A program made the position numbers and the translations under genes. From the NCBI GenBank assembly GCA_038867895.1, contig JAWBXL010000004.1, positions 3,117-67,116 on the forward strand: 64,000 nt of DNA. The letters run 5' to 3'. How positions within the stretch are numbered: the stretch's first letter is position 1; the number at the start of each line of letters is the position of its first letter. The notes beneath the pieces were generated by a model. That model made no database searches and was not told the origin of the DNA. It worked only from the letters and a program-made list of their open reading frames with translations. Source of the DNA: Candidatus Bathyarchaeia archaeon. GTDB lineage: Archaea > Thermoproteota > Bathyarchaeia > Bathyarchaeales > DTEX01. Below, in pieces: positions 17,137-64,000 of the stretch.

Positions 17137-17148
17137 TTCCGCCTCATG

Positions 17149-18027
17149 CTATAATGGATGAGCCTTCTCACGGTTAATTACAGCCTCTATAACTTCACCA
17201 TCATATTTGCTCCAAGCGCGGCGGGCACTCTCAACTTTATCCCTTGGTACCACCGCGGCTACCGCCGGGCCCTTGCCGGAAAGCCCCGCTGCAATAGCCC
17301 CTGAAGATAGGGCATCTATAGCTACGTTTGGATCATATCCAAGGACCGCCGAGTAGGCTAGACCGTTAAGTGTCATTGCACGCCAATAGTCTCCGGAGAG
17401 GGCCATCCCATGTAGAGCCTTAATCTCCCTGGATATAATTTTCATTCTATTTACATCCGATTTAGCCGTATATGCTTTTCTTGGCGGAACATAAATTAAG
17501 ACTGCATAGTCTTCTTCTGGCTGAAAGATCCGTAAGATCTTTCTCTCAATATTGTCCGTTACGACTATGTTTCCGAAGTATGAGGCGCATGCATCATCAA
17601 ATGCTCCTGTCACTGTTACACCAGCCTCGATGGACGCTTCAACCCCAATATTAATTATCGTTAAATCATCTACTTCTTCGCCCAGCGCCGAGACTGTTGC
17701 AAGGGCTATTGCATTAGCCGCAGCGCTGCTACTCTTCAATCCACGTGCAATGGGAATGTTAGAATCCGTCTCAACATATGCTCCATACTGATCCTCAACA
17801 CCAAAATATTTTAGAAAGCGGCGGACAACCTTCTCGATCAAAATTATGCTCTCAGATGGATCTGAGAGGATTCTCCCCATGATCCTCCCAGGCTCATTTG
17901 TGAGCTTGACTCTAGCCTCAGTCTTAAGGTTTATCCCAAGGGCTGCGCCCAGACCGCAGGATATAGCATTAATGATGGTCACGGCCCCATACGCAATCGC
18001 CCGCCCAACCAAAGCCAAGAGCCGCAC
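17149..18027 (-). CDS. aroK: archaeal GHMP-type shikimate kinase
   Basis: GAVTIINAISCGLGAALGI and GLKSSSAAANA (GHMP motif). It lies between aroE and aroA. Confidence 0.8.
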   Translation of the reverse strand: MRLLALVGRAIAYGAVTIINAISCGLGAALGINLKTEARVKLTNEPGRIMGRILSDPSESIILIEKVVRRFLKYFGVEDQYGAYVETDSNIPIARGLKSSSAAANAIALATVSALGEEVDDLTIINIGVEASIEAGVTVTGAFDDACASYFGNIVVTDNIERKILRIFQPEEDYAVLIYVPPRKAYTAKSDVNRMKIISREIKALHGMALSGDYWRAMTLNGLAYSAVLGYDPNVAIDALSSGAIAAGLSGKGPAVAAVVPRDKVESARRAWSKYDGEVIEAVINREKAHPL

Positions 18028-18028
18028 C

Positions 18029-18895
18029 TCAACAACCTTTTTCCATAATTTTCTTTAGAGCTGCCTCCCTCATAACCTCTATTGGCGCCTTAACTCCAGT
18101 CCATATCTCGAAGGATAGTGCCCCCTGGTGGACGAGCATTGAGAGCCCATCAACAGTCTTTGCGCCAACGGACTTAGCTTCCCTGAGAAGTCTCGTCTCA
18201 AGCGGATCATAAACTATGTCGAAGACAGTTAAATTTCCATGAAGCATTTCTCTTTTAACGGGGGTTTCATCCTCATTTGGCTTCATGCCAACTGAGGTTG
18301 CGTTTATCAGTATGTCAGCATTTCTTAGCTCGTCCCCTAAAACCCCTTCTAAGAGGGGGCCAGCCCTAATCTCAACCGAGCTGGAAACTCTCCTTAATTC
18401 ATCCGCCAGCTCCTCAGCCTTCCTCAAAGTCCTATTTAATATTACTAGTTCTTGGGCGTGATTGACAAGCGTGAAAGATATTGATTTTGAGGCTCCCCCA
18501 GCCCCTAAAATAACAACTTTTTTTCCGAGGGGGTCGGAGCCAGCATACTTTAGGGCGCTAAGCGCGCCCAATCCGTCAGTCGTGTATCCTATAAGCCTGC
18601 CATCCCTATTAAGGATAGTGTTTACTGAACCAGCCATCTTAGCTCCCTCATCAAGTTCATCAAGATATTTTATCACGTTTATTTTATAGGGCATTGTTAC
18701 ATTTACTCCGCGGATACCGAGACCCCTTATGCCAGAAACGGCTTCCCCAAGATTCTCTGGTGGAACATTGAATGCCACATAAATGTAGTCTAGGCCAAGA
18801 TGCTGAAAGGCAGCGTTATGCATTATTGGGCTCAGCGAGTGCTCGATTGGATATCCTATTAGGGCGCAGACCCTCGTCCTACCAGTTATCTCCAT
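18029..18895 (-). CDS. aroE: shikimate 5-dehydrogenase
   Basis: SLSPIMHNAAF, NVTMPYK and GAGGASKS motifs. Confidence 0.9.
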   Translation of the reverse strand: MEITGRTRVCALIGYPIEHSLSPIMHNAAFQHLGLDYIYVAFNVPPENLGEAVSGIRGLGIRGVNVTMPYKINVIKYLDELDEGAKMAGSVNTILNRDGRLIGYTTDGLGALSALKYAGSDPLGKKVVILGAGGASKSISFTLVNHAQELVILNRTLRKAEELADELRRVSSSVEIRAGPLLEGVLGDELRNADILINATSVGMKPNEDETPVKREMLHGNLTVFDIVYDPLETRLLREAKSVGAKTVDGLSMLVHQGALSFEIWTGVKAPIEVMREAALKKIMEKGC

Positions 18896-19620
18896 TATTC
18901 TAACCTCATCCTCCTATAGATTTCCCTCATCTCATGAATAGATATTTGGCCCGGAGCAGTTTCAAGGCCCGCTCCAAGCGACGCATACGTAAATGACGCT
19001 CCAAAGACCGGGGATAAAATCCTCGAGAGCAAGCCCTTCTCGCCCATGGCGAAGCAGACTAGGCTGGTCCTCTTGCTCATTTCATACGTGAAAACCAGGC
19101 ATCTAACGCTATCTAACAGGCTATTCGCCATAGAAACAACCTTGCATATGTCAGCATTAGCCTCAACCTGCCTCCTGACGAGAGCCTCCAATTCTTCTGT
19201 TTGCGGCGTATGGGTGAAGATATGATAAGAAATTATTACTTTGGCTCCATGGGCTTTAATTTTGTCAACAACTTCATGAAGGTTCCGCGTGTCCAACTCT
19301 ATATCTATATAATCGAAGCCGGCTTCAGCAGCCATAATAAGCGACTCAATTCTCTCCCCCTCGCTTAACATGCATTCTCCGCCTTGCCCCTTATGCCTAT
19401 TAGTCGCTATTAACGGAACAGAACAGACGCTGACAACCTCTTTAAGGCGGTTAACGCTCTCCAATAATTTTTCACTCATATAGTCTAGTCTAATCTCAAT
19501 CAGATTAGCGCCGCTCTCTTCAGCCTCACGGACCCTATTAAAAAGACCTTGAAGATCTCTAGCGGGAATAGGAACGCAGACCCTTACACCCAAATTAACC
19601 CAGCCTTCCCTTTCACACAT
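18895..19620 (-). CDS. aroD: 3-dehydroquinate dehydratase, type I
   Basis: LIEIRLDY and a TIM-barrel type I DHQase pattern. It shares a 1-nt overlap with aroE. Confidence 0.8.
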   Translation of the reverse strand: MCEREGWVNLGVRVCVPIPARDLQGLFNRVREAEESGANLIEIRLDYMSEKLLESVNRLKEVVSVCSVPLIATNRHKGQGGECMLSEGERIESLIMAAEAGFDYIDIELDTRNLHEVVDKIKAHGAKVIISYHIFTHTPQTEELEALVRRQVEANADICKVVSMANSLLDSVRCLVFTYEMSKRTSLVCFAMGEKGLLSRILSPVFGASFTYASLGAGLETAPGQISIHEMREIYRRMRLE

Positions 19621-50403: not shown

Positions 50404-51543
50404 TTATTTGTTTAGTCCTAGCTCGCGTAGGATCTCTTTGTTATGCTGCCCGATTTCTGGTGGCGGGGATCTAATTTCCAGTTTAAAGTCTGAGAACTTT
50501 AAAGGTATTCCAGGCATCTTTACCTTTTTACCTTTATATTCAACCTCAACTATCATGTTTCGGTGGAGTAGTTGCGGATGGTTTAGGAGATCAAGTGTCG
50601 TATTAACTGGGCCGCAAGCTATTCCAGCGTTGATGAGGGCGTTTTCAAGATCTTTTGTCTTCCACTCTTTAGTTAGCTTCTCAATTAATTGAGAAAGCTT
50701 TTCTCTATTTTTGGCTCTACTTTCTCTTGTAGAGAATAAAGGATCATTCACGAGATAATCCGCCTTTAAGATTTCACAGAATTTCTTCCAAGCGTCATCT
50801 TCATAGGCGGCTATAAATATATAACCATCCTTTGTCCTATAAACCTGATAAGGTGCCCCAATTGGCGCTGCTGAACCCATCCTCTCTCTAACCTTACCAG
50901 TTAGGGAGCTCCACGCTATCCAGTATCCAGCCCACATTGATGCAACATCTAACATGGATATATCTATGTATTGTCCTCTCCCAGTCTTTTCTCGGTAAAT
51001 AAGTGCCGCAAGTATCGCTAATGCCGCGTATGCTCCAGTTCCATAATCAACTATCGATGCTGGTATTCTTGATGGTAAACATGGCTCTGGGTCCCCAGTC
51101 ATCGACATGAGCCCAGATTCGGCTTCTATAACTGGATCCCAAGCAGGGCGTTGATAATATGGCCCGGTTTGTCCATAACCTGAAATTGAGCAGTAAATTA
51201 TTCTAGGATTAATTGCCTTAACACTTTCATAGTCTAATCCAAACTTCTTCATAGTTCCTGGAACAAAGTTTTCAACCAGAACATCAGCCCTCTTTACTAA
51301 CTCAAGAGCGACTTTCTTCCCCTCCTCAGTTCTGAGATCCAAGGATATTCCTCTTTTATTCCTATTGTTAACTATGTATGCTGTCTCCAGCATATCAACC
51401 CAGTACCTTGCCCGATCCCCCCTAGGCGGCTCAATTTTAATTACATCAGCGCCTAAGTCTGCTAGAAGAGCTGCGCAATGCGGTCCGGCGACCTCATGTG
51501 TAAAATCAAGAACTTTTATTCCTTCTAATGGCGCCCTAACCAC
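50404..51543 (-). CDS. family III CoA-transferase (CaiB/BaiF/BbsF-like)
   Basis: PLEGIKVLDFTHEVAGPHCAALLADLGADVIKIEPP is a typical N-terminus. The length is 379 aa. Confidence 0.85.
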   Translation of the reverse strand: MVRAPLEGIKVLDFTHEVAGPHCAALLADLGADVIKIEPPRGDRARYWVDMLETAYIVNNRNKRGISLDLRTEEGKKVALELVKRADVLVENFVPGTMKKFGLDYESVKAINPRIIYCSISGYGQTGPYYQRPAWDPVIEAESGLMSMTGDPEPCLPSRIPASIVDYGTGAYAALAILAALIYREKTGRGQYIDISMLDVASMWAGYWIAWSSLTGKVRERMGSAAPIGAPYQVYRTKDGYIFIAAYEDDAWKKFCEILKADYLVNDPLFSTRESRAKNREKLSQLIEKLTKEWKTKDLENALINAGIACGPVNTTLDLLNHPQLLHRNMIVEVEYKGKKVKMPGIPLKFSDFKLEIRSPPPEIGQHNKEILRELGLNK

Positions 51544-51794
51544 GATTTTTCCCTCCCTAATCTTTAATCTTTTTGAATGATCTCAGTAATAATGTTTTCG
51601 TTAGCATGATTTGAAAGCATTGTTATATCTATAAGATGAAAAGTCTAAAAAGTATAGTTCAATTTTCCTTGCTGAGAATTTTTCTTAAGCGTGTGCTCCC
51701 ATGAAACCTTTTATGCGAATCATATATAAGAGCATCGATCCTAAAAGATTATATCGAAGCTGCAACCATTATCTTGGTTAGAAAGGTGATCAAT

Positions 51795-52676
51795 ATGGTG
51801 GGCGAGAAAGAGAAAGAAAAGTTGATGGAAGCATATCTCCATGGCTTCTTAGACAAGGCTCTCTTAGGAACTCGCGAGGATGCTCTGAAGAAGCCCATGG
51901 TGAAAATATTCGGAAAGGAAGTTGAGATATATGATCTATCCCATCCAGTCAGCGAAAGGACGCCGACATGGCCGTATGGCGCTGCAGGCATCGAGACATC
52001 TAGGTTGCGTTCCCATGCGCATGATCGTGTCCTCGCCGTAAAACTCTCCCATACTATGCATATGGGAACACATATAGATGCGCCTTTACACGTGGAGGAG
52101 GGTTACCCATCCATTGACGAGATGCCCTTAGAGCGTTATATCGGGGATGGAGTAGTTGTATCGATTCCTAAGAAGGAATGGGAAATAATAACCCCCGAGG
52201 ACCTTGAGAAGGCTAAGCCGAAAATAGAAGAGAATGACATAGTTATCATTAACACCGGCTGGCACAATTATTACGGAGACTATACTAGATACTTCTGTTT
52301 CGGCCCAGGGCTCTATAAAGAGGCTGCCGAATGGTTCGTGAAGAAGAGAGTTAAGGGCGTTGGAGTTGACCTACAAGCCATGGATCACCCATTAGGTACC
52401 AGACTTGTCCAGACGGGTGGCGGAATGCCTCCTCTTGAGCCATGGCTAATAGATCTCTATAAGAAAGTGACTGGGAGAGATGTTTATCAAGACTTTCCAT
52501 ACTGGGAGCCATGCCACAGACTCTTATACACACATGGAATCTTTGGAATAGAAAACATCGGCGGTGACATAGACAAGGTTACTGGTAAGAGATGCGTCAT
52601 TGCAGCCTTCCCACTTAAGTGGGTTGGTGGAGACGGATCAATGGTTCGGGTAGTAGCAATAGTCGAGAAAAAATAA
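51795..52676 (+). CDS. cyclase-family metal-dependent hydrolase (kynurenine formamidase-like fold)
   Basis: HMGTHIDAPLH (HxGTHxDxPxH). ATG 51795 follows AAGGTGAT. The track start is TTG 51774. Confidence 0.75.
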   Translation: MVGEKEKEKLMEAYLHGFLDKALLGTREDALKKPMVKIFGKEVEIYDLSHPVSERTPTWPYGAAGIETSRLRSHAHDRVLAVKLSHTMHMGTHIDAPLHVEEGYPSIDEMPLERYIGDGVVVSIPKKEWEIITPEDLEKAKPKIEENDIVIINTGWHNYYGDYTRYFCFGPGLYKEAAEWFVKKRVKGVGVDLQAMDHPLGTRLVQTGGGMPPLEPWLIDLYKKVTGRDVYQDFPYWEPCHRLLYTHGIFGIENIGGDIDKVTGKRCVIAAFPLKWVGGDGSMVRVVAIVEKK

Positions 52677-52737
52677 GTGGAAAATATTCCTGATGCCCCT
52701 AACATTGATGGATAGAGGTTTTCTCTACAAGCTTTTT

Positions 52738-53532
52738 TTATTTTCCCTTCCAAACTGGTTTTCTTTTTTCTAAAAATGCCTTTGCCCCCTCTTTTTGATC
52801 TTCCGTGCTGAATAACTGTGCAAAGATTTGCGCCTCATACTTAAAACCCTCTGTTAAACTCACTTCTAGAGCTGCGTTTATTGCTTCTTTTGCCGCTGCC
52901 AAGGCTACGGGACTCTTCTCCTTAATTTTCGCGATGAATTCGTTAACAGCATCCATAAGCTTATCCGCTGGAACAACCTTGTTAACTAAGCCCATCTGCT
53001 CCATTTCTTTGGCAGGGATTCTTTCTCCAGTAAATATGAGCTCTTTAGCCTTCTTCTCGCCGATAAGCCTTGGCAATCTTTGGGTTCCACCACCCCCTGG
53101 GATTAAGCCGAGGTTTATTTCTGGTTGGCCGAAGACAGCATCTTCAGAAGCAATTATTATATCGCATGCCTGAGCTAGCTCGAAACCAGCGCCTAGGCAA
53201 TATCCATGGACTGCGGCTATCACTGGTTTCGGAGCGTTTTTAATTATCTCAGAGAGGACTAATGCTGTCCCAACTTCTCTCGCCATGTTTAGAATATCAA
53301 GTGGCTTCATTTCTGCCATGGCGCGTATGTCCCCTCCAGCGCTAAAGGCCTTTCCAGACCCCCTTATAACAATCGCTAAAACACCGCTATCTCTGCTTGC
53401 GTCTTCTAAAGCCTGCTTCAGCTCCCTGCGCGTCTTAGCGTCAAGAGCATTATAGCGCTCTGGATTATTAAGTGTAATCCAGGCAACTCCATCTTTCTTC
53501 TCATATATAATGCGGCTAAATGTTGCACTCAT
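52738..53532 (-). CDS. enoyl-CoA hydratase/isomerase (crotonase) family protein
   Basis: GKAFSAGGDI, GYCLGAGFELA and the GQPEINLGLIPGGGGTQRL oxyanion-hole motifs. Confidence 0.9.
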   Translation of the reverse strand: MSATFSRIIYEKKDGVAWITLNNPERYNALDAKTRRELKQALEDASRDSGVLAIVIRGSGKAFSAGGDIRAMAEMKPLDILNMAREVGTALVLSEIIKNAPKPVIAAVHGYCLGAGFELAQACDIIIASEDAVFGQPEINLGLIPGGGGTQRLPRLIGEKKAKELIFTGERIPAKEMEQMGLVNKVVPADKLMDAVNEFIAKIKEKSPVALAAAKEAINAALEVSLTEGFKYEAQIFAQLFSTEDQKEGAKAFLEKRKPVWKGK

Positions 53533-53673
53533 ATTCGCTCCCTCTCTTTAAATATTTTCAGAAGAAGATTTTTATTTATTATTTTAGTTTTGTTTTGACG
53601 TGATTTTTAAGTTAAGTAAAGTTTAAAAGTAATATGGTTCTTGTATAGAGAAAGGAGGAAGGGGAGATAGTAT

Positions 53674-54096
53674 ATGAAGAAAGAGGTCCCGATAATGGAA
53701 GGCATTTTCGAGTGGCCTTCGGAGAATCCGAGGTTAATAGCGACGAGATGCCCACTTTGTGGAAGTATACAGTTCCCTAAGTCGAGCGTTTGCAATAACC
53801 CCGACTGCGACCATAGTGCGCCTGTAGAACAATGCTACCTAAGTACTGAGGGAACATTATATACATATACTATTCACGCCTACAGTTTACGAGAACCATT
53901 CGAGTATCATAAAGGGCCATACATAGTCGGCGCAGTTGAGCTGCCAGAAGGGTTAATTGTGGTTGGGAGAATCAAGGCGGAGGACGAAAAAATGTTAAAG
54001 ATTGGGATGAAAATGAAGTTAAAAATAGATAAGCTCTATGAGGATAGTGAAAATATCTATTTAGGTTATTTTTTTGAGCCGGTGGTGGAAAAATGA
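53674..54096 (+). CDS. DUF35 zinc-ribbon/OB-fold protein (thiolase partner, BbsA-like)
   Basis: CPLCGSIQFP...CNNPDC zinc ribbon followed by an OB-like segment. Its stop overlaps the thiolase start by 4 nt. Confidence 0.8.
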   Translation: MKKEVPIMEGIFEWPSENPRLIATRCPLCGSIQFPKSSVCNNPDCDHSAPVEQCYLSTEGTLYTYTIHAYSLREPFEYHKGPYIVGAVELPEGLIVVGRIKAEDEKMLKIGMKMKLKIDKLYEDSENIYLGYFFEPVVEK

Positions 54097-55313
54097 CTGA
54101 GAGCGCGATAGTTAGTGCGGCTATAACGGAATGGGTTGAAGCTGGCCATCCGACTCCTCTGCTAATAGATAAGTTAGCCGAGGTTACTGTGAGATCTCTC
54201 AGAGAAGCAAATTTAAGACCGCGCGATCTAGATGCCATAATTACGAACACCACAGCGATACCATTTGATAGCCCATCCTATATAACGACAAGCGCGCAGC
54301 ATTTTGCCCATAGGCTTGCAGAGAGGATCGGTGCTAAGGGAGCCCAATGCATTAATGTTTGCGCTGCGTGTGCAAGCGCCTCAATAGCTTTCGCTCTTGC
54401 CGACTCGCTCATAAAGACTGGCGCGATAAAAACGGCGCTTGTGGCGGGCGTTGATAATTCTCCACGAGGCTTCTACCTGCCAGGCCAATCCGTTCTTGAT
54501 CCCGATCCATATGCGGCTGCTATAAAGGTTATTGGGGCGACTAATCCAGCTTATTGGGCTATGTGGGCTAGGAGACGGGCATATGAAATGGGCCGGCCAG
54601 TTGAAAGCATTAAAGAGCTTATGGCGTTGGTGAAAGAGATAAACAGCAAGTATGGCTCTCTGAATCCCTATGCAAGATACAAGAAAATTTTCACTGTTAA
54701 GGATGTTTTGGCATCGCCTGTCGTTTGTGATCCACTACACCTTTATATGATATGTGCAACAAGCTCTGGCGGAGGAGCTGTGGTAGTTACAGAGATGGAG
54801 AAGGCAAAAAAGATAACTGATAAACCAGTAAAGATAGCGGCTTCTACTGTGGGTGGACCGATTTATGGCGAGCCTATGCCAAGATTGAGGGTTTTTTCGA
54901 CGAAGAATATTGAGAAGCCCTTTACTGAGTGGCGTCTTCCCATCGAGAAAGCCTATAAAATGGCTGGTATAACTGCCGAGGACATAGACATTATAGAGTG
55001 CCATGATACAAGCTGTTTTCACACGATAAACTGGATAGATCAGATAATGGGCTGGGAGCGGGAGGAGACCGATAAGCTAATAAGAGATAGGCAGATCGAG
55101 CATACCGGTATGGTCCCAGTGAACCTAAGCGGTGGAACAGCTTCATTTGGAGAGGCTGTGATGAGTCAAGCCTTCATGATGATACATGAGCTATTCAGGC
55201 AATTGAGGGGAGAAGCTGGCGAGAGACAGGCGAAAAAGAACCTTAAAATCGCGATCTTTACAGCCTATGGAGCCTATGGAGCATACGGATGCGCAATACT
55301 TGAAAAAGTCTAG
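54093..55313 (+). CDS. thiolase-like protein, SCP-x/BbsB type
   Basis: INVCAACASAS (Cys nucleophile), ECHDTSCF and GGTASFGEAV. It is coupled to DUF35. Confidence 0.8.
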   Translation: MTESAIVSAAITEWVEAGHPTPLLIDKLAEVTVRSLREANLRPRDLDAIITNTTAIPFDSPSYITTSAQHFAHRLAERIGAKGAQCINVCAACASASIAFALADSLIKTGAIKTALVAGVDNSPRGFYLPGQSVLDPDPYAAAIKVIGATNPAYWAMWARRRAYEMGRPVESIKELMALVKEINSKYGSLNPYARYKKIFTVKDVLASPVVCDPLHLYMICATSSGGGAVVVTEMEKAKKITDKPVKIAASTVGGPIYGEPMPRLRVFSTKNIEKPFTEWRLPIEKAYKMAGITAEDIDIIECHDTSCFHTINWIDQIMGWEREETDKLIRDRQIEHTGMVPVNLSGGTASFGEAVMSQAFMMIHELFRQLRGEAGERQAKKNLKIAIFTAYGAYGAYGCAILEKV

Positions 55314-55370: not shown

Positions 55371-56459
55371 TTAGATCTGCTCCATTAATATTTTCGCGAT
55401 TAAGTTGTTTATTTCGCCGCTTTTTATATCCTCGGATGAATCTCGTGTTCCCAATAATAGGTCTAGAACATGTTTAGTCTGGATATTTGGTTGTGTGTTC
55501 CAGAAGATCTGCGCGCAGGTATAGCAATAGACCACCATTAAATCCGCGCCAGTTGATGAGAACTCCTCCGTTCTCGCTGATGAAAGTTTTAATGTGAGAT
55601 TTGGGTCAGCTATAGAGGCCATGCCGCCAGCACCGCAGCATAAAGACTTTTCCCTAGAATGTTTCATCTCTATGATTTTGCAGTCTTTAAGTAGGCTTCT
55701 AACCTGTGTGGCTAAGATGCCCTCAAATCTATCTGGGCAGCTATCATGAATAGTTACTTTCAGGCCTAAATAATTTGTTTCTTTAATAAGGGTTTCGCCT
55801 AAGGTCTCATATACAGTTAAAATTCTATATGATTTTGGAAGAGAGTTTTTAAGATGATAGTAGCACATGGGGCATGCAACTATTATATTTCTACACCCGT
55901 GTTTTATAAAGTGATTTTCTAGGTTCAGGAGCCATCTTGAAGCTCTTTCGGTTAAGCCTATATCTGCTAATGGTTTACCGCAACATGTGTCGGTAAACCC
56001 CATACTGCAAAATTTCTCTCTAAGTCTCTGGTATACTTCCTTAACAGCTTCTGGAGAGTAAGAGGACATGGAGCATCCTGGAAAGAAAATGTATTCAAAA
56101 GAATCATTTTCTGGGAAACTATATGTTATTCCCTTATAGGTCTTGTAGGCTCTGGGAAAGAAGAGGGGATCATCTGGTAGAGAAAATCTATAATATATTT
56201 CGTTGGCCACGTATTTTGAGAAGGATCGTCTAGCGTGGGCGATTATCGAAGGAAAATCCAGGGTTTTTGGGCAAACAATTTTACATAGACCGCATAAAAG
56301 GCACTCCATTACATACCTTTTATTTTGGTCAATGCCGTTAAGGAGGTCCTTAGCGATATTCTTTGGCATCCAATTATATTTTGATAGAAAGGGGCAGTCT
56401 TCAACGCATAACTGGCATTCTATACACTCATCAAGAATAAGTTTGAGAGACTCATTCAT
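55371..56459 (-). CDS. Fe-S oxidoreductase with two ferredoxin-type 4Fe-4S motifs and two CCG domains (HdrD/GlpC/LutA-like)
   Basis: CIECQLCVEDCP and CLLCGLCKIVCP, then DTCCGKP and SLCCGAGG (CCG motifs). Confidence 0.8.
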   Translation of the reverse strand: MNESLKLILDECIECQLCVEDCPFLSKYNWMPKNIAKDLLNGIDQNKRYVMECLLCGLCKIVCPKTLDFPSIIAHARRSFSKYVANEIYYRFSLPDDPLFFPRAYKTYKGITYSFPENDSFEYIFFPGCSMSSYSPEAVKEVYQRLREKFCSMGFTDTCCGKPLADIGLTERASRWLLNLENHFIKHGCRNIIVACPMCYYHLKNSLPKSYRILTVYETLGETLIKETNYLGLKVTIHDSCPDRFEGILATQVRSLLKDCKIIEMKHSREKSLCCGAGGMASIADPNLTLKLSSARTEEFSSTGADLMVVYCYTCAQIFWNTQPNIQTKHVLDLLLGTRDSSEDIKSGEINNLIAKILMEQI

Positions 56460-56489
56460 TGATTATTCCTCCAAATAGATGTTTTTATT

Positions 56490-57689
56490 TCAAACATAAG
56501 TTATCATTCTTCCTCTTTCTGTTTGTCTTATAGCTATAGGCGGTTTAATCGATGTGATCTTATCTATCATCCGTCTTATCCTTTCAATATATTTTTTCTC
56601 AAGATCTAGATCAGTTTTAACAACTTTTTTTGCAACCTCCCCGCAATAGTTGCAATCGCCACAGCCGATTATGCATGGCGGGTTATTTTTCACGAAGAAT
56701 TCATACCATCCGTCGAGCGATCGATTATCAATTGAAATTTTCAGTAGAGGTAAAGGTTCAGCGTCTAGGTCAAACATGTCCCAGCAAAAATGCATGTAAG
56801 AATTATCAATGAGGGCATATATATCGCCATCATATCTCCCGGCAAGATAGGCTTCAATAAGTCTTAATAGATCATCTGCCGGCAGCCCTCGCCCGGCTAT
56901 CTTAATATAATCTATCCCTAATTGAGCATAATATTTAATATCCTCTGGCCTAATCCAAGGCGCCTTCATGATCTCCTTATGATCACTCAATCTCTTAAGA
57001 GTGCATCTCATGAATGGATATGGCTTATATGTAAATCCTATTGGATCATCTATTGGGCATTGAGAGACATGAGCCGTTATAGTGTTATGGTAAGTTCTAA
57101 ATGGACATTTTAGCAGGCAGCCATTATTGGCTATAACTTCCAGTTTAGCTCTACACTTCTCTCTTATTATTCTTAGCACTCTAAAGGACTTGTTGAGATC
57201 TTCGCTCAGCGTGAGTCTCGTAGCTCCTAAACTCTCATATGTCAACGCCCGATTCAAAGAATCTATATAGCATAGGGATGAAGCATTAACTTCGAACTGC
57301 GGGAAATTCTTCACCACATACTCAATAAGGTATGGTATGGCAATAATAAGTGTATCAACCTTAAACTCCAAAAGTTTCCTTAAAAGATCATTTAAGGCCA
57401 CCCTCCCCTCCTCCGTATACTCGGCGAGGCCCATGCATACTGGATTTAACGTGTAGGCGAACCTAATCCCGTAAGCATGAGCCTTCCCTATATGCCGGGC
57501 AAGCCTATCTTCACTTATATCTGGGAGAATAGTTGCTGGCCAACCAGTACCAAAAATAGAGAACTTAAATGAGCCATAAACCTCGTAAACGTAAGATCCT
57601 AAATCACGATATTTCTCATTCAAATTACCTATCCTTTCTAAAAAGGAGTCCTCAAAAGTTGTGGGAACGCAGAGCCTAATAATGGTCAT
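56490..57689 (-). CDS. divergent U32-family (UbiU/UbiV/collagenase-like) TIM-barrel protein with C-terminal Cys cluster
   Basis: VDTLIIAIPYLIEYV..FEVNASSLCYIDSLNRALTYESLGATRLTLSEDLN...LEVIANNGCLLKCPF follows the U32 core pattern loosely. C-terminal CIIGCGDCNYCG. A 30-nt gap separates it from the CCG protein gene. Confidence 0.5.
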   Translation of the reverse strand: MTIIRLCVPTTFEDSFLERIGNLNEKYRDLGSYVYEVYGSFKFSIFGTGWPATILPDISEDRLARHIGKAHAYGIRFAYTLNPVCMGLAEYTEEGRVALNDLLRKLLEFKVDTLIIAIPYLIEYVVKNFPQFEVNASSLCYIDSLNRALTYESLGATRLTLSEDLNKSFRVLRIIREKCRAKLEVIANNGCLLKCPFRTYHNTITAHVSQCPIDDPIGFTYKPYPFMRCTLKRLSDHKEIMKAPWIRPEDIKYYAQLGIDYIKIAGRGLPADDLLRLIEAYLAGRYDGDIYALIDNSYMHFCWDMFDLDAEPLPLLKISIDNRSLDGWYEFFVKNNPPCIIGCGDCNYCGEVAKKVVKTDLDLEKKYIERIRRMIDKITSIKPPIAIRQTERGRMITYV

Positions 57690-57864
57690 CTTTAAACACC
57701 AATATGAATATGAGCGCTCTTAGATTTTAGCGTTCTGAAGCATATTTGAGAGTCTTAAAGAATTGGGTGAAATCCTTTCCTCGTAACTAGGAATTTGGCT
57801 TATTCTCAGAAAGGTTTAAATTTATTAATTGCTATTTTAGGTAAGTTTAGGTTTAGGAGGATTC

Positions 57865-58140
57865 ATGATGATATTTCTGCCGCGGGCCTCTTTACCCCCG
57901 AAGCTTCAGATAATTGTTAGAAAGGTTGGGGAAAAAGACTATGAAATAACAACTGAACCTAAGCTGGAGCCAATGGTTTTCGCCACATTTGTTGTAACAT
58001 TTAAGCAGTGTGCGAAAAATTGCGTAGTTAAGCTCTCTGGCGGCAAACTTAATCTTTCTGGTGAAGCCCCTGACTTTAAAACAATACTTGATTGTATAAG
58101 TAGCCAGTCCCCAATACCAGTTGAACTTCAAATGGTTTAG
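57865..58140 (+). CDS. small protein of unknown function (91 aa)
   Basis: TAGGAGGA lies 4-5 nt upstream of the ATG. It is convergent with the radical SAM gene and overlaps its stop by 4 nt. The antisense ORF 57892-58131 is considered a shadow. Confidence 0.4.
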   Translation: MMIFLPRASLPPKLQIIVRKVGEKDYEITTEPKLEPMVFATFVVTFKQCAKNCVVKLSGGKLNLSGEAPDFKTILDCISSQSPIPVELQMV

Positions 58141-59504
58141 AGGAGAGATCTATACAATTTTTTCTTATCAGTTGCGGTCACATTATATAGGCAGAACGGT
58201 ATGAGCCTACCGTTACCTCTAACTTCATGGACACAGCATTTATTTAGTCTCTCAATATCTATCGTCCAAGCGTCCTGAGCGAAGTGACAGCCCACCGAGA
58301 AAAATCCCTCCGGCCTTAAATATTCAAGTAGAATCCTAAGGAAGGAACCAGCTGCTTGTGGTCTAAGATTCCTTGCGAACTCCCTTGAGATATTAAGCTC
58401 ATCCGCAATCGCCTTCAAAATGTCATCGAAATCCACAAATCTATTGGTTAATGAGTACTTATCTATTAGCTCCTCTACATCAACCAGTCTAGTTAAAACA
58501 TAAGGATTTCCATCTTCTCTAAGATAAGTGTAGAGAAGCGATGAGCACCTTGGATCTGGGCATGGAACAGGAATAAAATCAGTAGCTTTTATTTTCCCCT
58601 CACTTCCCCTCTCAATCTCTTTTTGAACATCACTTATAGTAACCCGATCTACTGGATCAAAGACTTTTGGGGGGTATCTTCCAAGGGCTGCAAATGGTTG
58701 AAAATTCACTCCTATCGCTCTCCTTTTAATAGCATATTTGATGATATTCCATGCCTGGTCATCATTGACGCCCTTTATGAGAGTTGCCGCTAGAGTTACG
58801 CTTAGACCTGCCTTAATGCAGTTTTCAATCGCTCTCTCCTTAACTTTTGTCAGGTCCCGTCCCCTTATTACCTGATAGACCTCAGGTGCTAAACCATCGA
58901 ACTGTAAATATACACCACTAATTCCATCGTCTGCTAGATCTTTGGCTAGGGCTGGATTTTTTGAAAGCTCTATTCCATTTGTATCCACCTCAATTAGCCT
59001 GAAGCCTAAGTCTCTAGCCAATCCAATAATTTCAATTAGATCATTTCTTATAGTGGGTTCTCCACCTGAGAACTGAATCGCTGTGGGTTTTCCCTCACAT
59101 CTTAAGAGGGCTTTGAGAATCTCCTCTATCTCTCCTATTGAAGGATTCCAGCTTGGCTCCTCTTGCGAGTCTGCGAGACATACTGGGCATAATAGGTTGC
59201 AGGTATCTGTAATTTCAAGTATCGCTAAGCAAGTATGCTGTCTATGAGATGGACAGAGACCGCAATCAAATGGGCATCCCCTCTCAGTCTCTTTGACATA
59301 AAATTCATTCGGCTTTTTGCCAACTCTAGAGAATTTTAAGGCTCTTTTGTACAAGTTCAGATCACTCCAAAGCAATGCCCGAGTAGATCCGTGTTCTTTA
59401 CAGTACTTCTCCATGTAAACCTGCTTTCCATCAGTGAAAATTCTAGCCGGAATAAGGTTTAGGCACAAGGGACATAAACTTTTGGTCTCGCTTAGAGTCT
59501 CCAT
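58137..59504 (-). CDS. radical SAM enzyme of the MJ0619/Tes (GDGT-MAS)-like family
   Basis: TKSLCPLCLNLIPARIF...YMEKYCKEHG, GCPFDCGLCPSHRQHTC, CNLLCPVC (CX3CX2C), QFSGGEPT, and the C-terminal HFAQDAW..ERLNKCCVHEV...RLIPFCLYN. This architecture matches my recollection of MJ0619. Confidence 0.65.
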   Translation of the reverse strand: METLSETKSLCPLCLNLIPARIFTDGKQVYMEKYCKEHGSTRALLWSDLNLYKRALKFSRVGKKPNEFYVKETERGCPFDCGLCPSHRQHTCLAILEITDTCNLLCPVCLADSQEEPSWNPSIGEIEEILKALLRCEGKPTAIQFSGGEPTIRNDLIEIIGLARDLGFRLIEVDTNGIELSKNPALAKDLADDGISGVYLQFDGLAPEVYQVIRGRDLTKVKERAIENCIKAGLSVTLAATLIKGVNDDQAWNIIKYAIKRRAIGVNFQPFAALGRYPPKVFDPVDRVTISDVQKEIERGSEGKIKATDFIPVPCPDPRCSSLLYTYLREDGNPYVLTRLVDVEELIDKYSLTNRFVDFDDILKAIADELNISREFARNLRPQAAGSFLRILLEYLRPEGFFSVGCHFAQDAWTIDIERLNKCCVHEVRGNGRLIPFCLYNVTATDKKKLYRSLL

Positions 59505-59597: not shown

Positions 59598-59861
59598 TTA
59601 GCTAATTAGTTTTAAGCCCATTTCAGTTGTTTTCCATTTTCCTTCCCAGCGAAGGCCACCTGTCTTCTCTAGTTCCCAGATAAAGTACGCTGGCCAAACT
59701 TTTGTCTTCTCATAGGTGGCTTTGAGATCCTCAAGCACAAACCGCTCTATCTCATTTTTTGTTTTTGGCTCGCGGCAGAACTTGAGAATCTCAGTATAAA
59801 TATTTCCAAATTCAGGATCGCGTAAAAGATCACCCAAAGTTTTCGTGACAACCCCATTCAT
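59598..59861 (-). CDS. small possible winged-helix protein (87 aa)
   Basis: ORF track. It lies on the same strand 93 nt upstream of the radical SAM gene. The wHTH call rests on a weak pattern only. Confidence 0.4.
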   Translation of the reverse strand: MNGVVTKTLGDLLRDPEFGNIYTEILKFCREPKTKNEIERFVLEDLKATYEKTKVWPAYFIWELEKTGGLRWEGKWKTTEMGLKLIS

Positions 59862-60206: not shown

Positions 60207-60932
60207 ATGTCGAGCTTTGAAAGTTCTATCAAAGAAAGGCTAATTGTATGTTTTGGAGGACGGGAAAAATTGTATAAATTTTTAGGGAGAATATATGAGA
60301 AGGAAGTTGATGAGCAACTAATTAAAGAGTGCATTATACGCAAGGAATTATTTCTAAAATGTAATTTGATTAGAGAAGTGGATGCTGATATAATGGAAGG
60401 CTTCATGGAACTATACAAATACCTTAATGGGTTAAAAGTGGGGAACTTAAATGAGATTATACTGGAACTTGCAGTTGATTATGCAAACCTATTCTTAGGA
60501 GTTAAATATTTTCGTGAGAAGAAAGGGATACCTCATCCCTCAGAATCGGTTTACTTAACTGGTAATATGCTTAGCGAAGAAGAAACTATATCAGAAATTT
60601 ACTTGGAAGCAGGTCTCATTAAGTCTCCGGAATTTAAGGAGCCTTATGATCATATTGCACTTCAACTATATTTTATGGCCCACCTGTGTAAAAAGGCAAT
60701 TGACTTTGTAAAAAGTGGAAACCTGCAGGATCTGTTGAGAAATCTTCAAATGCAAAAGAGTTTTCTAAGCGAGCATTTGTTAAAATGGGTTCCGAAATTT
60801 GCTGGTGATGTGATAGAGAATTCAGAGACTAGTTTTTATAAAGCTATTGGAAAAATAACAAGAGGATTAATATGCATGGAAAAAGATGTGATAGAGGAAA
60901 TTATTGAGCAGGCTAAAAAATTATTACTTTAA
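60207..60932 (+). CDS. TorD/DmsD-family molybdoenzyme maturation chaperone
   Basis: LAVDYANLFLG...PHPSESVYL...EPYDHIALQLYFMAHL fits the TorD family pattern. Confidence 0.7.
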   Translation: MSSFESSIKERLIVCFGGREKLYKFLGRIYEKEVDEQLIKECIIRKELFLKCNLIREVDADIMEGFMELYKYLNGLKVGNLNEIILELAVDYANLFLGVKYFREKKGIPHPSESVYLTGNMLSEEETISEIYLEAGLIKSPEFKEPYDHIALQLYFMAHLCKKAIDFVKSGNLQDLLRNLQMQKSFLSEHLLKWVPKFAGDVIENSETSFYKAIGKITRGLICMEKDVIEEIIEQAKKLLL

Positions 60933-61792
60933 CCTTTTTCTAAGCCTATTGTTCCCAGATTTATGTCTTTACTCGTTAGGTATACGCCGAGAGTCTTACC
61001 TTTATAACCACTTTTCTCAATTTTAATTAAGTATTTGTGGTTCCATTCAAGATCTTTAAGCCAGAAGTCTCCTAATTCATCCGTGTTTGTCTCATGTTTT
61101 TCGCCAGTATATAAGTCTAGAGCGGTAACTTTAGCGTCGATCACGACCTCTTTCTCATCAAAATCTACCACGCAACCTGCAATAAAGGGTTTAGGCAAGT
61201 TTAGATAGCACACTCTTGGCCTCGTATTATATTCTCGCCCTATAACATCCGCGTTCCTTATTAATTCCTTGATTTTACTATCGCTTTCATCTCCGTAGAT
61301 TATTGCCCCCGTGGGGCACGCATCATGGCATCTAGGCCCGTATTTCCAATCTGGGTCATCAAGCAAATGAGAACATCCAGTACACTTTTGTGCGATTCCC
61401 AGCTCACTATTGAAATATATTATGTTATATGGGCATGCCTCAATACATAAAGGCTTGTTAACCCCTAATGGCTTACATCCATTACATTTGTTTGGATCTA
61501 TTAATACTATACCATCAGGCCTCTTAACTATGGCGCCTATTAAGCAGGCTCTCATGCATGGTGGGTTGTTACAGTGCATGCATAAAATCGGTATATATGT
61601 TACTTTAACTTTTGGTATTGATCCTCGTTCTTGCATATCAACTTTTATCCAGAATTGTCCATATTCGGGTTGTGGTTTAGAGTATGGGCTCCAGTCATTG
61701 CCGACAAACTCGTCTTTACAAGATATGACACAGCTCATACAACCTATACATTTATTCACGTCAATAATGAAAATTTTCCCCATCTTTCTCAC
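60929..61792 (-). CDS. 4Fe-4S electron-transfer (beta) subunit of a Mo/W-bisPGD oxidoreductase, with a C-terminal Ig-like/carboxypeptidase-regulatory-like domain
   Basis: Several CxxCxxCxxxC(P) groups (CIGCMSCVISC, CMHCNNPPC, CNGC...CIEACP, CTGC...CHDACP). The C-terminal ~90 aa beta-rich tail is AGCVVDFDEKEVVIDAKVTALDLYTGEKHETNTDELGDFWLKDL. Confidence 0.85.
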   Translation of the reverse strand: MRKMGKIFIIDVNKCIGCMSCVISCKDEFVGNDWSPYSKPQPEYGQFWIKVDMQERGSIPKVKVTYIPILCMHCNNPPCMRACLIGAIVKRPDGIVLIDPNKCNGCKPLGVNKPLCIEACPYNIIYFNSELGIAQKCTGCSHLLDDPDWKYGPRCHDACPTGAIIYGDESDSKIKELIRNADVIGREYNTRPRVCYLNLPKPFIAGCVVDFDEKEVVIDAKVTALDLYTGEKHETNTDELGDFWLKDLEWNHKYLIKIEKSGYKGKTLGVYLTSKDINLGTIGLEKG

Positions 61793-61794
61793 CT

Positions 61795-64000
61795 CTAGGT
61801 GACAAGATAAATTTCTGTTGTTGGGCCGATTATTGGATGCATTTTTCTCTTAAAGGCTTCAGGATACTTGCTCATCAACTCATTTATATCAACCTTTTTA
61901 ATATTTACAAGAATGCCGGAGCAAACCTGTTCTGGCACTCTTATCTCTTCTCCTGGCATATACTTGAAGGTTGGCGTCGGCATCAAAAGGTCAATTGCTC
62001 CTCCTCTATCGATCTTATCATCAACGCTAATCATATCAACTCTCGCTCCGTGGTCGATCGATATTGCCCCGGGGATAATCCTCTCAGTAATTATTGCTCC
62101 AGCGAGGGTTGATCCATAATCGTTATAGATCATTATTATATCTCCATCTTTAATGCCTAGTTTTTCTGCATCAGATGGGTGAATCCAGACTCCCTCATAT
62201 AAATATCCATCTGGTCCTCTGACCTTATAGATCTCTCTTAACCATATTATCTCATCCCCTTGCGAATGAAATCTATATCTTGGATGATTGGAGCAGACAA
62301 TGAATGGATACTTTCTCCTTTTAGTTGAAATAGGTAGCTCGTCATGCTCAATCCACCTGGCGACTGGAGGTCTCTCATTATCGGTAGGAGCATATTTTAG
62401 AGCTAGCTGTGACTGATACTCTATTTTGCCGCTGGGAGTCTCCAGATTACTTTTCGCTTTATAGAATTTGCTCATAAATGAATCATAAGTATCATATCCA
62501 AATTTTTTCTTAATTTCGACCCACTCTTCCCATGTGGGATGACTGTAGATCATTATTTTCTTTTTCGTCTTAAATTCTTCCCAGCTTATCCCATTCTTCT
62601 TAAATGCAAGGGTTTTTTCATAGAATTCTTTTAGAATCACCTCTGGATCTGGGAACTTTTCTATTAGTTCAGGCTTGTTAAATTCTTTTGCTAATCTTTC
62701 CGCAATCATTCGGTGAATCTCATAGTCGCTCTTAGATTCGCCGATAGGTTCGATACATTTATCATGATATGCTATTCCCACTATCTCTGAGCGGGCGCTT
62801 ACTACAAGGTCTGCAACCTCATGGTCCGTCAGCGCGGGTAAAACGAGGTCTGCAAATAATGCATCATTTTCAAACCAAGGATGTATTACTAGGTGAAATT
62901 CTATCTTTGGATTTCTGAGAGCCTCAATGAACTTATATCCATGCCAGCATGTCGTGTAGCATGCGTTTTCATTCCAGATCATTCTAATACCAGGGTGGTC
63001 ATCGGTTGGCGGATATCTATATTTCACGAAAAGATCCTCTACAACGTTAAATTGAGCGCCAGAACACCACCATTTAACTGGGGGATTTAATATTGCGTCT
63101 GGAACCAACGTCTTTATGAGAGGAATCGCTGGTGGAGGCTGCACCTTAAATGCATATTTTGTTCTTTCAATATAGGAGCGCGCTTCCTCAACCACTTCTG
63201 GGTAAGAAGGCAGCAATGACACATCTTTCATATTAAGTCTTGATGAAACCCAGAATCTCAAGAATTGTCTTCCGGGCTTCCCAAGCCCTTGCATCGCTAA
63301 AACATATGCCTCCATTCTACCCGCGATGTGAGAATAAGGTCCCCTGATCTTGCTGCCCCCATAAACGACGGCGAGAGAGGTTCTCTTTTTGGCCCATAGT
63401 CTAGCCAGCGCCTTTATTGTCCATTGCGGTACTCCAGTTATTTTCTCAGCCCACTCTGGAGTCTTCGGAATCCCATCATCTTCCCCTAAAACATGCTTTT
63501 TAAATTCCTCAAAACCCACGGTGCGCGTATTAACATAATCCTTATCGTAAAGTCCCTCTTTAATCCAAACATATGCTATAGCCAGATAGAGAGCGGCATC
63601 CGTGCATGGATTAACTGGAATCCATTTATCAGCCCAAACAGCCTCACTATAGTTTAGATCCGGAGATATTGCGATTATCTCAATTCCAGCCTTTTTAAGG
63701 GCCTCGCACAAGTGTGACACGTGCGAACTGAAACCCGCAGCCGTTGTTTCGGGGTCGCATCCAGAGAATATTACTACTTCTCCATACTGTAGAACATTAT
63801 CCCAAGCTCCATCTTGATATGGCTCCCCAAGCGTTGAATCAAAGCCCCATACTAGCTTAGCCCCCCAATAATAACCCTCCCAGCTATCTGGATTTCTAAT
63901 TTGTTGAGTCCAGCCGAATCCCAGGTGATCAAAAAGCATGTGGCCATAAAAGTGCATTGTATGTAAGAAGCCTGATTGACCGTGTCCGTCGCCCTGCACT
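61795..64000 (-). CDS. Mo/W-bis(pyranopterin guanine dinucleotide) oxidoreductase catalytic (alpha) subunit, DMSO reductase superfamily, 5' end outside the window
   Basis: The 734-aa partial ORF is open to the window edge. It has MopB-type domains and a C-terminal dinucleotide-binding barrel (DGDIIMIYNDYGSTLAGAIITERIIPG). A 2-nt gap separates it from the beta subunit. Confidence 0.85.
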   Translation of the reverse strand, partial: VQGDGHGQSGFLHTMHFYGHMLFDHLGFGWTQQIRNPDSWEGYYWGAKLVWGFDSTLGEPYQDGAWDNVLQYGEVVIFSGCDPETTAAGFSSHVSHLCEALKKAGIEIIAISPDLNYSEAVWADKWIPVNPCTDAALYLAIAYVWIKEGLYDKDYVNTRTVGFEEFKKHVLGEDDGIPKTPEWAEKITGVPQWTIKALARLWAKKRTSLAVVYGGSKIRGPYSHIAGRMEAYVLAMQGLGKPGRQFLRFWVSSRLNMKDVSLLPSYPEVVEEARSYIERTKYAFKVQPPPAIPLIKTLVPDAILNPPVKWWCSGAQFNVVEDLFVKYRYPPTDDHPGIRMIWNENACYTTCWHGYKFIEALRNPKIEFHLVIHPWFENDALFADLVLPALTDHEVADLVVSARSEIVGIAYHDKCIEPIGESKSDYEIHRMIAERLAKEFNKPELIEKFPDPEVILKEFYEKTLAFKKNGISWEEFKTKKKIMIYSHPTWEEWVEIKKKFGYDTYDSFMSKFYKAKSNLETPSGKIEYQSQLALKYAPTDNERPPVARWIEHDELPISTKRRKYPFIVCSNHPRYRFHSQGDEIIWLREIYKVRGPDGYLYEGVWIHPSDAEKLGIKDGDIIMIYNDYGSTLAGAIITERIIPGAISIDHGARVDMISVDDKIDRGGAIDLLMPTPTFKYMPGEEIRVPEQVCSGILVNIKKVDINELMSKYPEAFKRKMHPIIGPTTEIYLVT

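Follow-up and report, generated by a model that had tools for sequence, protein, structure and literature searches.

What does a U32-type protein do when its gene is directly followed by that of a heterodisulfide-reductase-like electron carrier? This question is raised by a stretch of 64,000 nucleotides (nt) from a Candidatus Bathyarchaeia archaeon (GCA_038867895.1, contig JAWBXL010000004.1, positions 3,117-67,116 of the forward strand), referred to here as the window. On its minus strand, the window encodes a U32-family TIM-barrel iron-sulfur (Fe-S) protein of 399 amino acids (aa) (56490..57689), assigned from Pfam, profile and hhalign matches, an AF2 model and cysteine conservation, and an HdrD-type protein of 362 aa (55371..56459, also minus strand), assigned from Pfam and NCBIfam matches and cysteine conservation. 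The genes are separated by a spacer of 30 nt (56460..56489, minus strand), with a GGAGG sequence 8 nt ahead of the HdrD ATG; no terminator-like site was found between them on their strand by a bacterial-type promoter and terminator scan, which carries little information for an archaeal host. The closest orthologs in metagenome-assembled genomes (MAGs) of Bathyarchaeia are up to 87% (U32) and 88% (HdrD) identical, and both open reading frames (ORFs), which the initial annotation had placed 30 nt apart, are therefore real genes rather than chance ORFs. They form a bicistronic operon, with a putative promoter within the 175-nt divergent intergenic region (57690..57864, defined by gene geometry) that lies between the U32 gene and a 91-aa ORF. 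As neither protein contains a hydrophobic segment, both look soluble.

The U32-like protein and its HdrD-type partner

The Pfam model Peptidase_U32 (PF01136) matches residues 99-186 of the U32-like protein at profile positions 4-89 of 233, with a score of 44.4 bits (gathering cut-off 22.4). A profile of 46 family members matches the PDB entry 5d88 at E=1e-18, and the same entry is the top Foldseek match of the AF2 model (pLDDT 90.6, pTM 0.91), with E=4e-11 and TM-scores of 0.77 (target) and 0.50 (query), followed by generic TIM barrels only. In hhalign, the protein aligns with E. coli UbiU at a probability of 92%; no profile match to UbiV was obtained, and TrhP is the sole NCBIfam match (20.8 bits, cut-off 534). 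The divergent U32-family TIM barrel proposed in the initial annotation is borne out by the Pfam score, the profile and fold match to 5d88 and the UbiU alignment, and on these sequence criteria the protein belongs to the U32 superfamily. Mk0906 (5d88) is the only solved U32 structure and the best match in profile and fold, but it covers the barrel only: it lacks the conserved cysteines of the U32-like family in the aligned segment as well as the C-terminal cluster region.

Conservation of the cysteines was counted over 77 non-identical homologs of the U32-like protein. In the barrel, C85 is present in 65/77, C191 in 75/77, and C195 and C229 in all 77. The motif NNGCLLKCPF (residues 188-197; 57099..57128, minus strand) holds C191 and C195, which hhalign aligns with C169 and C176, two cluster ligands of UbiU; their spacing is shortened to CX3C, against CX6C in UbiU. 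C85 resembles C39 of UbiV, and C229 resembles C232 of UbiU. The motif of UbiU is CX6CX16CX38C, whereas that of the U32-like protein is CXnCX3CX33C, with an additional four-cysteine site toward the C-terminus. This site, CIIGCGDCNYCG (residues 339-350; 56640..56675, minus strand), has the arrangement C339-x3-C343-x2-C346-x2-C349, each cysteine being conserved in 77/77 homologs, and is a putative second [4Fe-4S] site. Neither UbiU nor UbiV has its pattern, CX3CX2CX2C, nor does the pattern occur in the canonical U32 motif (PMC6747719). An RPED motif, H201, R267 and Y281 are further conserved in the family. In the AF2 secondary structure C85 and C191 are located at the C-terminal ends of barrel strands, a placement compatible with a cluster on the catalytic side of the predicted barrel. 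The cysteine pair and the extra C-terminal cluster noted initially are thus strongly conserved, and we infer two putative [4Fe-4S] sites from the sequences: a barrel site, homologous to the UbiU site, that would be catalytic, and an additional site at the C-terminus that would act as a relay.

The canonical cysteine motif of U32 oxidases is CX6CX15CX3/4C (PMC6747719). The U32-like protein does not conform to it, because the third cysteine position (C210/C211) varies across the 77 homologs; its own pattern reads C85...C191-x3-C195-x33-C229. Like UbiU and UbiV, it combines a U32 TIM barrel and a soluble, putatively Fe-S-binding character with a partner protein. The UbiUVT system has two U32 paralogs, which form a heterodimer, and an SCP2 protein, whereas the window has one U32-type gene in 64 kb and each Bathyarchaeia locus has one; no UbiT/SCP2 gene was found near the U32-like gene at the locus. 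UbiU and UbiV belong to a context of quinone biosynthesis, whereas the context of the U32-like protein is catabolic and its partner of the HdrD type. TrhP and RlhA belong to the same superfamily, but the U32-like protein has neither the Peptidase_U32_C domain nor the canonical motif nor an RNA-related context. Since it departs from the motif and has no second U32 subunit and no SCP2 partner, the protein falls, as judged from sequence, outside every characterized U32 family, in a widespread two-cluster subfamily that was previously undescribed and unnamed.

CCG (PF02754) matches two stretches of the HdrD-like protein (65.8 bits), and Fer4_17 and Fer4_8 match with 46 and 43 bits. The ferredoxin motifs CX2CX2CX3C comprise C12/15/18/22 and C53/56/59/63, the complete CXnCCGXmCXXC signatures C129/C159-C160/C196/C199 and C241/C274-C275/C312/C315, and all 18 cluster cysteines are invariant in 25 homologs of 31-87% identity, in agreement with the two [4Fe-4S] ferredoxin motifs and two CCG domains of the initial annotation. 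Curated families score below their cut-offs: NF045663 at 196 bits (cut-off 530; profile positions 307-639 of 759), TfrB at 84 bits (cut-off 385), and the NCBIfam HdrB and HdrC models at 20-25 bits, far under theirs. No HdrE-type membrane or cytochrome gene was found beside the HdrD-like gene among the ORFs and Pfam matches at the locus. Based on the two ferredoxin motifs, the two full CCG signatures, the sub-threshold curated scores and the lack of an HdrE-like neighbor, the sequence is that of a complete HdrD-type module that matches no curated equivalog. A ferredoxin dicluster with two CCG domains is likewise found in HdrD/HdrBC, TfrB, DsrK, HmcF and NF045663 ("dicluster-binding protein near Sec"). 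NF045663, however, has an N-terminal flavoprotein domain that is missing from the HdrD-like protein, a soluble stand-alone protein encoded next to the U32 gene, and HdrDE has the membrane protein HdrE, for which the HdrD-like gene has no adjacent counterpart.

Conservation of the pair and its molybdenum-enzyme context

A one-genome-per-species scan, built on the close clade, gave at least 362 loci (species genomes) with relatives of the U32-like protein. Their identities form a tight Bathyarchaeia clade at 69-87%, followed by a gap and then by values of 30-43% in many bacterial and archaeal phyla. Additional loci were obtained from a metagenome scan; after dereplication at 97% U32 identity, and with at least 1.2 kb of downstream sequence required, 13 Bathyarchaeia lineages were retained. 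In about 16 loci of high GC content the simple ORF caller replaced the U32 gene by an antisense shadow ORF, which leaves the tblastn-based counts unaffected.

An HdrD gene directly downstream of U32 on the same strand, at gaps of 27-94 nt, is present in 7/13 lineages, with U32 at least 72% identical to that of the window, and missing in the remaining 6/13. The sister lineages have other arrangements. In the lineage L001/L012 a polyferredoxin gene, co-oriented with U32, lies 128 nt upstream of it, and downstream there is a transhydroxylase-family beta/alpha pair in convergent orientation. In L018/L105, L104, L106 and L107 a same-strand string comprises a molybdenum (Mo) enzyme, U32, a 175-aa ORF, an ortholog of the transhydroxylase alpha subunit and a beta subunit; in the L018 string (L018:3552-11802) the first Mo enzyme has 840 aa and the 175-aa ORF has no Pfam match. 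In the lineage L003/L017 the HdrD ortholog ends a co-oriented TorD/alpha/beta/HdrD string, with U32 divergent from TorD. Among about 140 distant homologs of the U32-like protein none has an HdrD-like neighbor, and HdrD orthologs of 39-45% identity are found in genomic settings that lack U32, in Nezhaarchaeota among others. No fusion of U32 to CCG or ferredoxin domains was found among family members; the only fusions seen are to SCP2 and DUF2621, since a seeming fusion to an ABC-ATPase probably stems from the ORF calling. The "tightly linked pair" of the initial annotation is therefore upheld for the seven lineages and not beyond them: the adjacency is real and inherited inside one Bathyarchaeia subclade, and it defines neither family, given its absence from the distant homologs and the occurrence of HdrD orthologs without U32. 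A literature search found no described U32/CCG pairing, in line with what had been supposed, nor this U32 subfamily, nor a characterized equivalent.

A more constant companion of U32 is a Mo enzyme. A member of the DMSO-reductase family lies within 10 kb of U32 in 13/13 dereplicated lineages, an association that is better conserved than the U32-HdrD pairing, and in 8/13 an alpha subunit of the PgtL/RhL (transhydroxylase/resorcinol hydroxylase) family is encoded. In the window, a PgtL/RhL-family alpha subunit (61795..63999, minus strand; N-terminus cut by the window end) matches 4v4c_A at E=5e-84, and a beta subunit with Fer4_11 and a transthyretin-like domain (60929..61792, minus strand) matches 4v4c_B over its full length at E=2e-42; a TorD/DmsD-type Mo-enzyme chaperone, assigned by family match, is encoded at 60207..60932 on the plus strand. 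The best solved relative of both subunits is thus the pyrogallol-phloroglucinol transhydroxylase of P. acidigallici (AthL/BthL, 4v4c), of the PgtL/RhL clade, which serves here as context only. To our knowledge, the characterized transhydroxylase has no described U32 partner, and none turned up in the searches made. In L018 the alpha subunit encoded downstream of U32 matches 4v4c_A over its full length with 1107 bits, and this transhydroxylase ortholog is co-oriented about 0.8 kb downstream of U32 in L018, L104, L106 and L107 (742 nt in the L018-type arrangement). A copy 86% identical to the L018 alpha subunit lies 8 kb from U32 in L011, which is closely related to the organism of the window. 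Mo enzymes of the PgtL/RhL clade act on lignin-derived phenols (PMC10100899), and the transhydroxylase requires 1,2,3,5-tetrahydroxybenzene as co-substrate (PMC13039779).

The pair lies between these Mo genes and, downstream of it, an acyl-CoA and ring-cleavage-like module (50404..55313) with a family III CoA-transferase, a cyclase-family hydrolase, an enoyl-CoA hydratase, a DUF35/OB-fold protein and an Ltp-type thiolase. The flanking by an acyl-CoA module and a molybdenum/tungsten (Mo/W) cluster was correctly described, though four further genes (the opposite-strand 91-aa ORF, a radical SAM gene, an 87-aa ORF and the TorD-like chaperone) separate U32 from the Mo enzyme. The ring-cleaving enzyme of the phloroglucinol pathway, DPGC, is of the cyclase family (PMC10470551), and the module at 50404-55313 could serve ring cleavage and the beta-oxidation of phenol-derived acids.

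A second, independent link of the U32-like family to anaerobic Mo hydroxylases is provided by bacteria. In L057, L066 and L073 (MAGs of Deltaproteobacteria and Binatia) a 360-aa family member lies amid 3-5 tandem alpha-subunit paralogs of the ethylbenzene dehydrogenase (EBDH)-like type, which score 595-657 bits against 2ivf. L073 additionally has a TorD-like gene and a beta-subunit gene. In a separate observation, an HdrA2-like protein, a DVU_1556-family methyltransferase, a polyferredoxin, split HdrC/HdrB-like genes and a formate-dehydrogenase/PhsA-like Mo enzyme form a recurring block beside several of the loci examined (L001:1-7872, L003:9382-17209, L096:1-6366), and this block resembles an electron-bifurcation module.

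Other distant homologs of the U32-like protein have different neighbors. One neighborhood holds a fatty-acyl-reductase-like (FAR-like) gene, an aminotransferase and an MMPL-like transporter; another subgroup has an Ltp-type thiolase directly upstream together with AMP-ligases, and a further one lies in arrays of B12-radical SAM genes with several U32-like paralogs. In L031, L037, L046 and L055 a canonical U32 gene, a 256-aa UbiV-like ORF (so labeled from a reading of its sequence, which has no Pfam hit), the U32-like member and a UbiE methyltransferase stand in a row. This row looks like oxygen (O2)-independent quinone tailoring with three U32-type proteins. A fusion with SCP2 sterol-transfer domains (E=1e-11) is seen in a 772-aa family member from L034 (L034:14775-17093). 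SCP2 is the domain found in UbiT, and the fusion echoes the UbiT-UbiU-UbiV arrangement inside one polypeptide. The neighborhood of the closest homolog outside Bathyarchaeia, L019, was uninformative. Because the family occurs in varied clusters of small-molecule and lipid type and has an SCP2 fusion, with no fusion to CCG or ferredoxin domains, we argue that its members are small-molecule Fe-S enzymes rather than peptidases, with substrates that differ among subgroups.

A proposed redox operon and its alternatives

Characterized U32 enzymes hydroxylate electron-rich phenolic and pyrimidine rings without O2, by a proposed mechanism that needs a two-electron oxidant; the acceptor is unidentified (PMC10990095, PMC11574389). 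With somewhat less than even confidence, we propose that U32 and HdrD constitute an Fe-S redox operon for an O2-independent two-electron change of a phenolic intermediate in anaerobic polyphenol (trihydroxybenzene) catabolism. The proposal of an O2-independent phenol redox enzyme is based on the barrel site homologous to that of UbiU, the conserved, relay-like four-cysteine site and the adjacent electron-transfer gene. The U32 barrel would act on the phenolic intermediate, preferably by ring hydroxylation as in UbiU/V or, alternatively, by reductive dehydroxylation, and would work alongside the neighboring Mo enzymes of the transhydroxylase/resorcinol-hydroxylase family. Electrons would pass from the barrel cluster via the C-terminal cluster, as an internal relay, to the ferredoxin clusters of HdrD and on to the CCG site, a direction of flow that is only proposed; the CCG site would exchange electrons with a thiol/disulfide or similar acceptor pool. 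HdrD would be an exchangeable module rather than an obligate subunit, replaced in sister lineages by the polyferredoxin or by the operon of the Mo enzyme. The gene structures, homologies, folds, cysteine conservation and neighborhood counts are observed here, while complex formation, substrate class, reaction type and the direction of electron flow are all inferred.

Several points weigh against this proposal. The Peptidase_U32 match spans only about one third of the Pfam model, and the canonical cysteine motif is not found. The HdrD adjacency is missing from six of the Bathyarchaeia lineages and from the distant homologs, and HdrD orthologs occur apart from U32. In L003/L017 the HdrD gene is co-oriented with Mo genes and U32 is divergent from them, so that HdrD may serve the Mo enzyme instead of U32. 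The polyphenol context rests on the homology of neighboring genes, and the alpha subunit of the window is only 36% identical to the L018 transhydroxylase ortholog, of which it is a paralog. Finally, the heterodisulfide couple is not obviously a strong enough oxidant for ring oxidation. The initial annotation stands as an observation and holds in part as an interpretation, qualified by a pairing limited to one clade, a motif that departs from the canonical one and a Mo enzyme that is the more constant neighbor of the two.

The assignment of HdrD to the Mo enzyme can be stated as an alternative of its own, in which HdrD is the electron-outlet subunit of the PgtL/RhL-type enzyme, comparable to the DmsB-like and HdrD-like subunits in Dsr and Hmc, and its adjacency to U32 reflects cluster packing, with U32 using another partner or none. 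The gene order in L003 (TorD, alpha, beta and HdrD co-oriented, U32 divergent) is what such a subunit would predict; in L094, from Nezhaarchaeales, HdrD adjoins a transhydroxylase-family beta/alpha pair without U32, in L013, L016 and L092 it is flanked by U32 on one side and by a convergent Mo beta/alpha pair on the other, and the Mo beta subunit matches DsrO/HmcB as HdrD matches DsrK/HmcF, at low scores. However, seven lineages have HdrD immediately after U32 in the same orientation, and in 4/7 of these no Mo gene adjoins HdrD; in the window six genes of mixed orientation separate HdrD from the Mo genes, and standalone HdrD orthologs are found beside ribosomal genes. We consider an outlet role for the Mo enzyme unlikely, while taking it seriously. 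If the U32-like protein instead resembled UbiU/V in function, it would modify a hydrophobic cofactor or a lipid (for example a quinone-like or isoprenoid molecule) in an anabolic pathway, with no role in phenol catabolism. The SCP2 lipid-binding fusion in L034, a weak SCP2 match of the FAR-like neighbor in Desulfobulbales, the canonical U32, UbiV-like ORF (a sequence reading with no Pfam hit) and UbiE methyltransferase in L031, L037 and L046, and a UbiE/ArsM-like methyltransferase near U32 in L001 and L003 point in that direction, but the supporting contexts come from homologs of only 30-37% identity, no SCP2 protein, prenyltransferase or second U32 gene lies near the gene of the Bathyarchaeia clade, and its constant neighbors are catabolic-type Mo enzymes, which makes an anabolic role rather improbable.

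The constancy of the Mo enzymes could also mean that the U32-like protein assists Mo enzymes of the DMSO-reductase family as an accessory or in their maturation, being active in cofactor or active-site processing and not itself an enzyme of the pathway. It recurs by Mo enzymes in two domains of life, of the transhydroxylase family in Bathyarchaeia and EBDH-like in bacteria, and sits by TorD-like chaperones and the Mo-linked radical SAM gene. Against this, no Mo enzyme is encoded close by in most of the family (groups A-D), the Mo enzymes concerned fall in different subfamilies, and we know of no need of the characterized transhydroxylase or of EBDH for a U32-like maturation factor; we regard such a factor as very improbable. 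An ordinary "collagenase-like" U32 peptidase, finally, is suggested by database names only, orthologs being listed as "U32 family peptidase" or "collagenase-like PrtC". The eight near-invariant cysteines of cluster type, the soluble cytoplasmic nature of the protein and its redox-gene neighbors argue against proteolysis, as does the fact that the characterized U32 members are Fe-S hydroxylases (PMC6747719, PMC11574389). On cysteine conservation and gene context we rejected the peptidase reading, to which we attach hardly any weight.

A much more specific version of the redox-operon proposal would make the U32-like protein the first catabolic U32 hydroxylase, carrying out O2-free hydroxylation of di- or trihydroxybenzenes with HdrD, polyferredoxin or the Fe-S subunit of the Mo enzyme as the electron outlet. 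Examples would be pyrogallol to 1,2,3,5-tetrahydroxybenzene, or catechol-type to pyrogallol-type rings. We know of no described cellular source for the 1,2,3,5-tetrahydroxybenzene that the transhydroxylase needs. By either reaction, U32 would feed lignin- or tannin-derived phenols into the phloroglucinol pathway of Bathyarchaeia, and no earlier U32 enzyme would have had an identifiable electron-acceptor module. In this precise form we hold the assignment to be distinctly improbable.

Neighboring genes and wider implications

Between U32 and the Mo genes lies a radical SAM protein of the Tes/TrsS/HMPTM family (58137..59504, minus strand), with scores of 426/490 for TrsS and 358/450 for Tes and an HMPTM zinc ribbon. 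The 91-aa ORF (57865..58140, plus strand) is conserved, has the invariant cysteines C49 and C77, and is convergent with the radical SAM gene, which it overlaps by 4 nt. Wherever its orthologs (59-93% identity) occur, Nezhaarchaeales included, the radical SAM gene is there too. The ORF has no Pfam or PDB match, and its AF2 model (pLDDT 75) gave no significant fold match, the best being SUI1-like at E=2e-3; as an SCP2/UbiT analog it was discarded (hhalign 0.2%, no Pfam or PDB match). The radical SAM gene is outside the U32-HdrD transcript, as the 175-nt spacer and the divergently oriented 91-aa ORF intervene. All four additional radical SAM loci (L096-L099) hold Mo enzymes or Mo-cofactor genes; in L098 a MobA-like gene, MoaA, a ModABC-like transporter and MoeA stand beside it. 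In Nezhaarchaeales the radical SAM gene and 91-aa ORF occur with HdrD and transhydroxylase-family alpha/beta genes, without U32. We excluded the radical SAM gene from the U32/HdrD system, as it travels with Mo genes with or without U32; around the U32-like family at large, a radical SAM gene within 5 kb in 22/64 loci, against a local background of 18/333 genes, was not a compelling enrichment. Because they travel with Mo enzymes and Mo-cofactor genes and not with U32, the radical SAM gene and the 91-aa ORF are assigned to the Mo-enzyme module, and the radical SAM protein may be a maturase for a Mo/W enzyme or for the pterin cofactor; the reaction of its HMPTM relatives is the methylation of a pterin. 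For TrsS, the literature offered no more than a catalog entry. Upstream of the radical SAM gene, an 87-aa ORF (59598..59861, minus strand) has no family match and is conserved only in the two closest relatives, at 86-90% identity.

Elsewhere in the window, a shikimate-pathway operon (14739-19620, minus strand) encodes DHQase, shikimate dehydrogenase, a GHMP-type kinase, EPSP synthase and chorismate synthase, and the organism can therefore make chorismate. Chorismate is the precursor of prephenate, the oxygen donor of U32 hydroxylases. The remainder of the window consists of housekeeping genes.

Apart from U32 proteins, no enzymes are known that can dispense with O2 in a hydroxylation and take the oxygen from an organic donor. 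For the U32 hydroxylases, no in vitro activity, catalytic role of the cluster or electron acceptor has been established (PMC10990095, PMC11574389). A U32 enzyme with a built-in putative relay cluster and a defined electron module in one operon is a tractable system in this respect, and the sister loci with U32 inside a transhydroxylase operon offer a second route to the same questions. The analysis also defines a widespread two-cluster U32 subfamily, with members in at least 362 species genomes that are now annotated as peptidases. Bathyarchaeia rank with the most abundant archaea of sediments and are implicated in lignin turnover. In these organisms a new anaerobic phenol-activating enzyme would bear on the degradation of polyphenols under anoxia.

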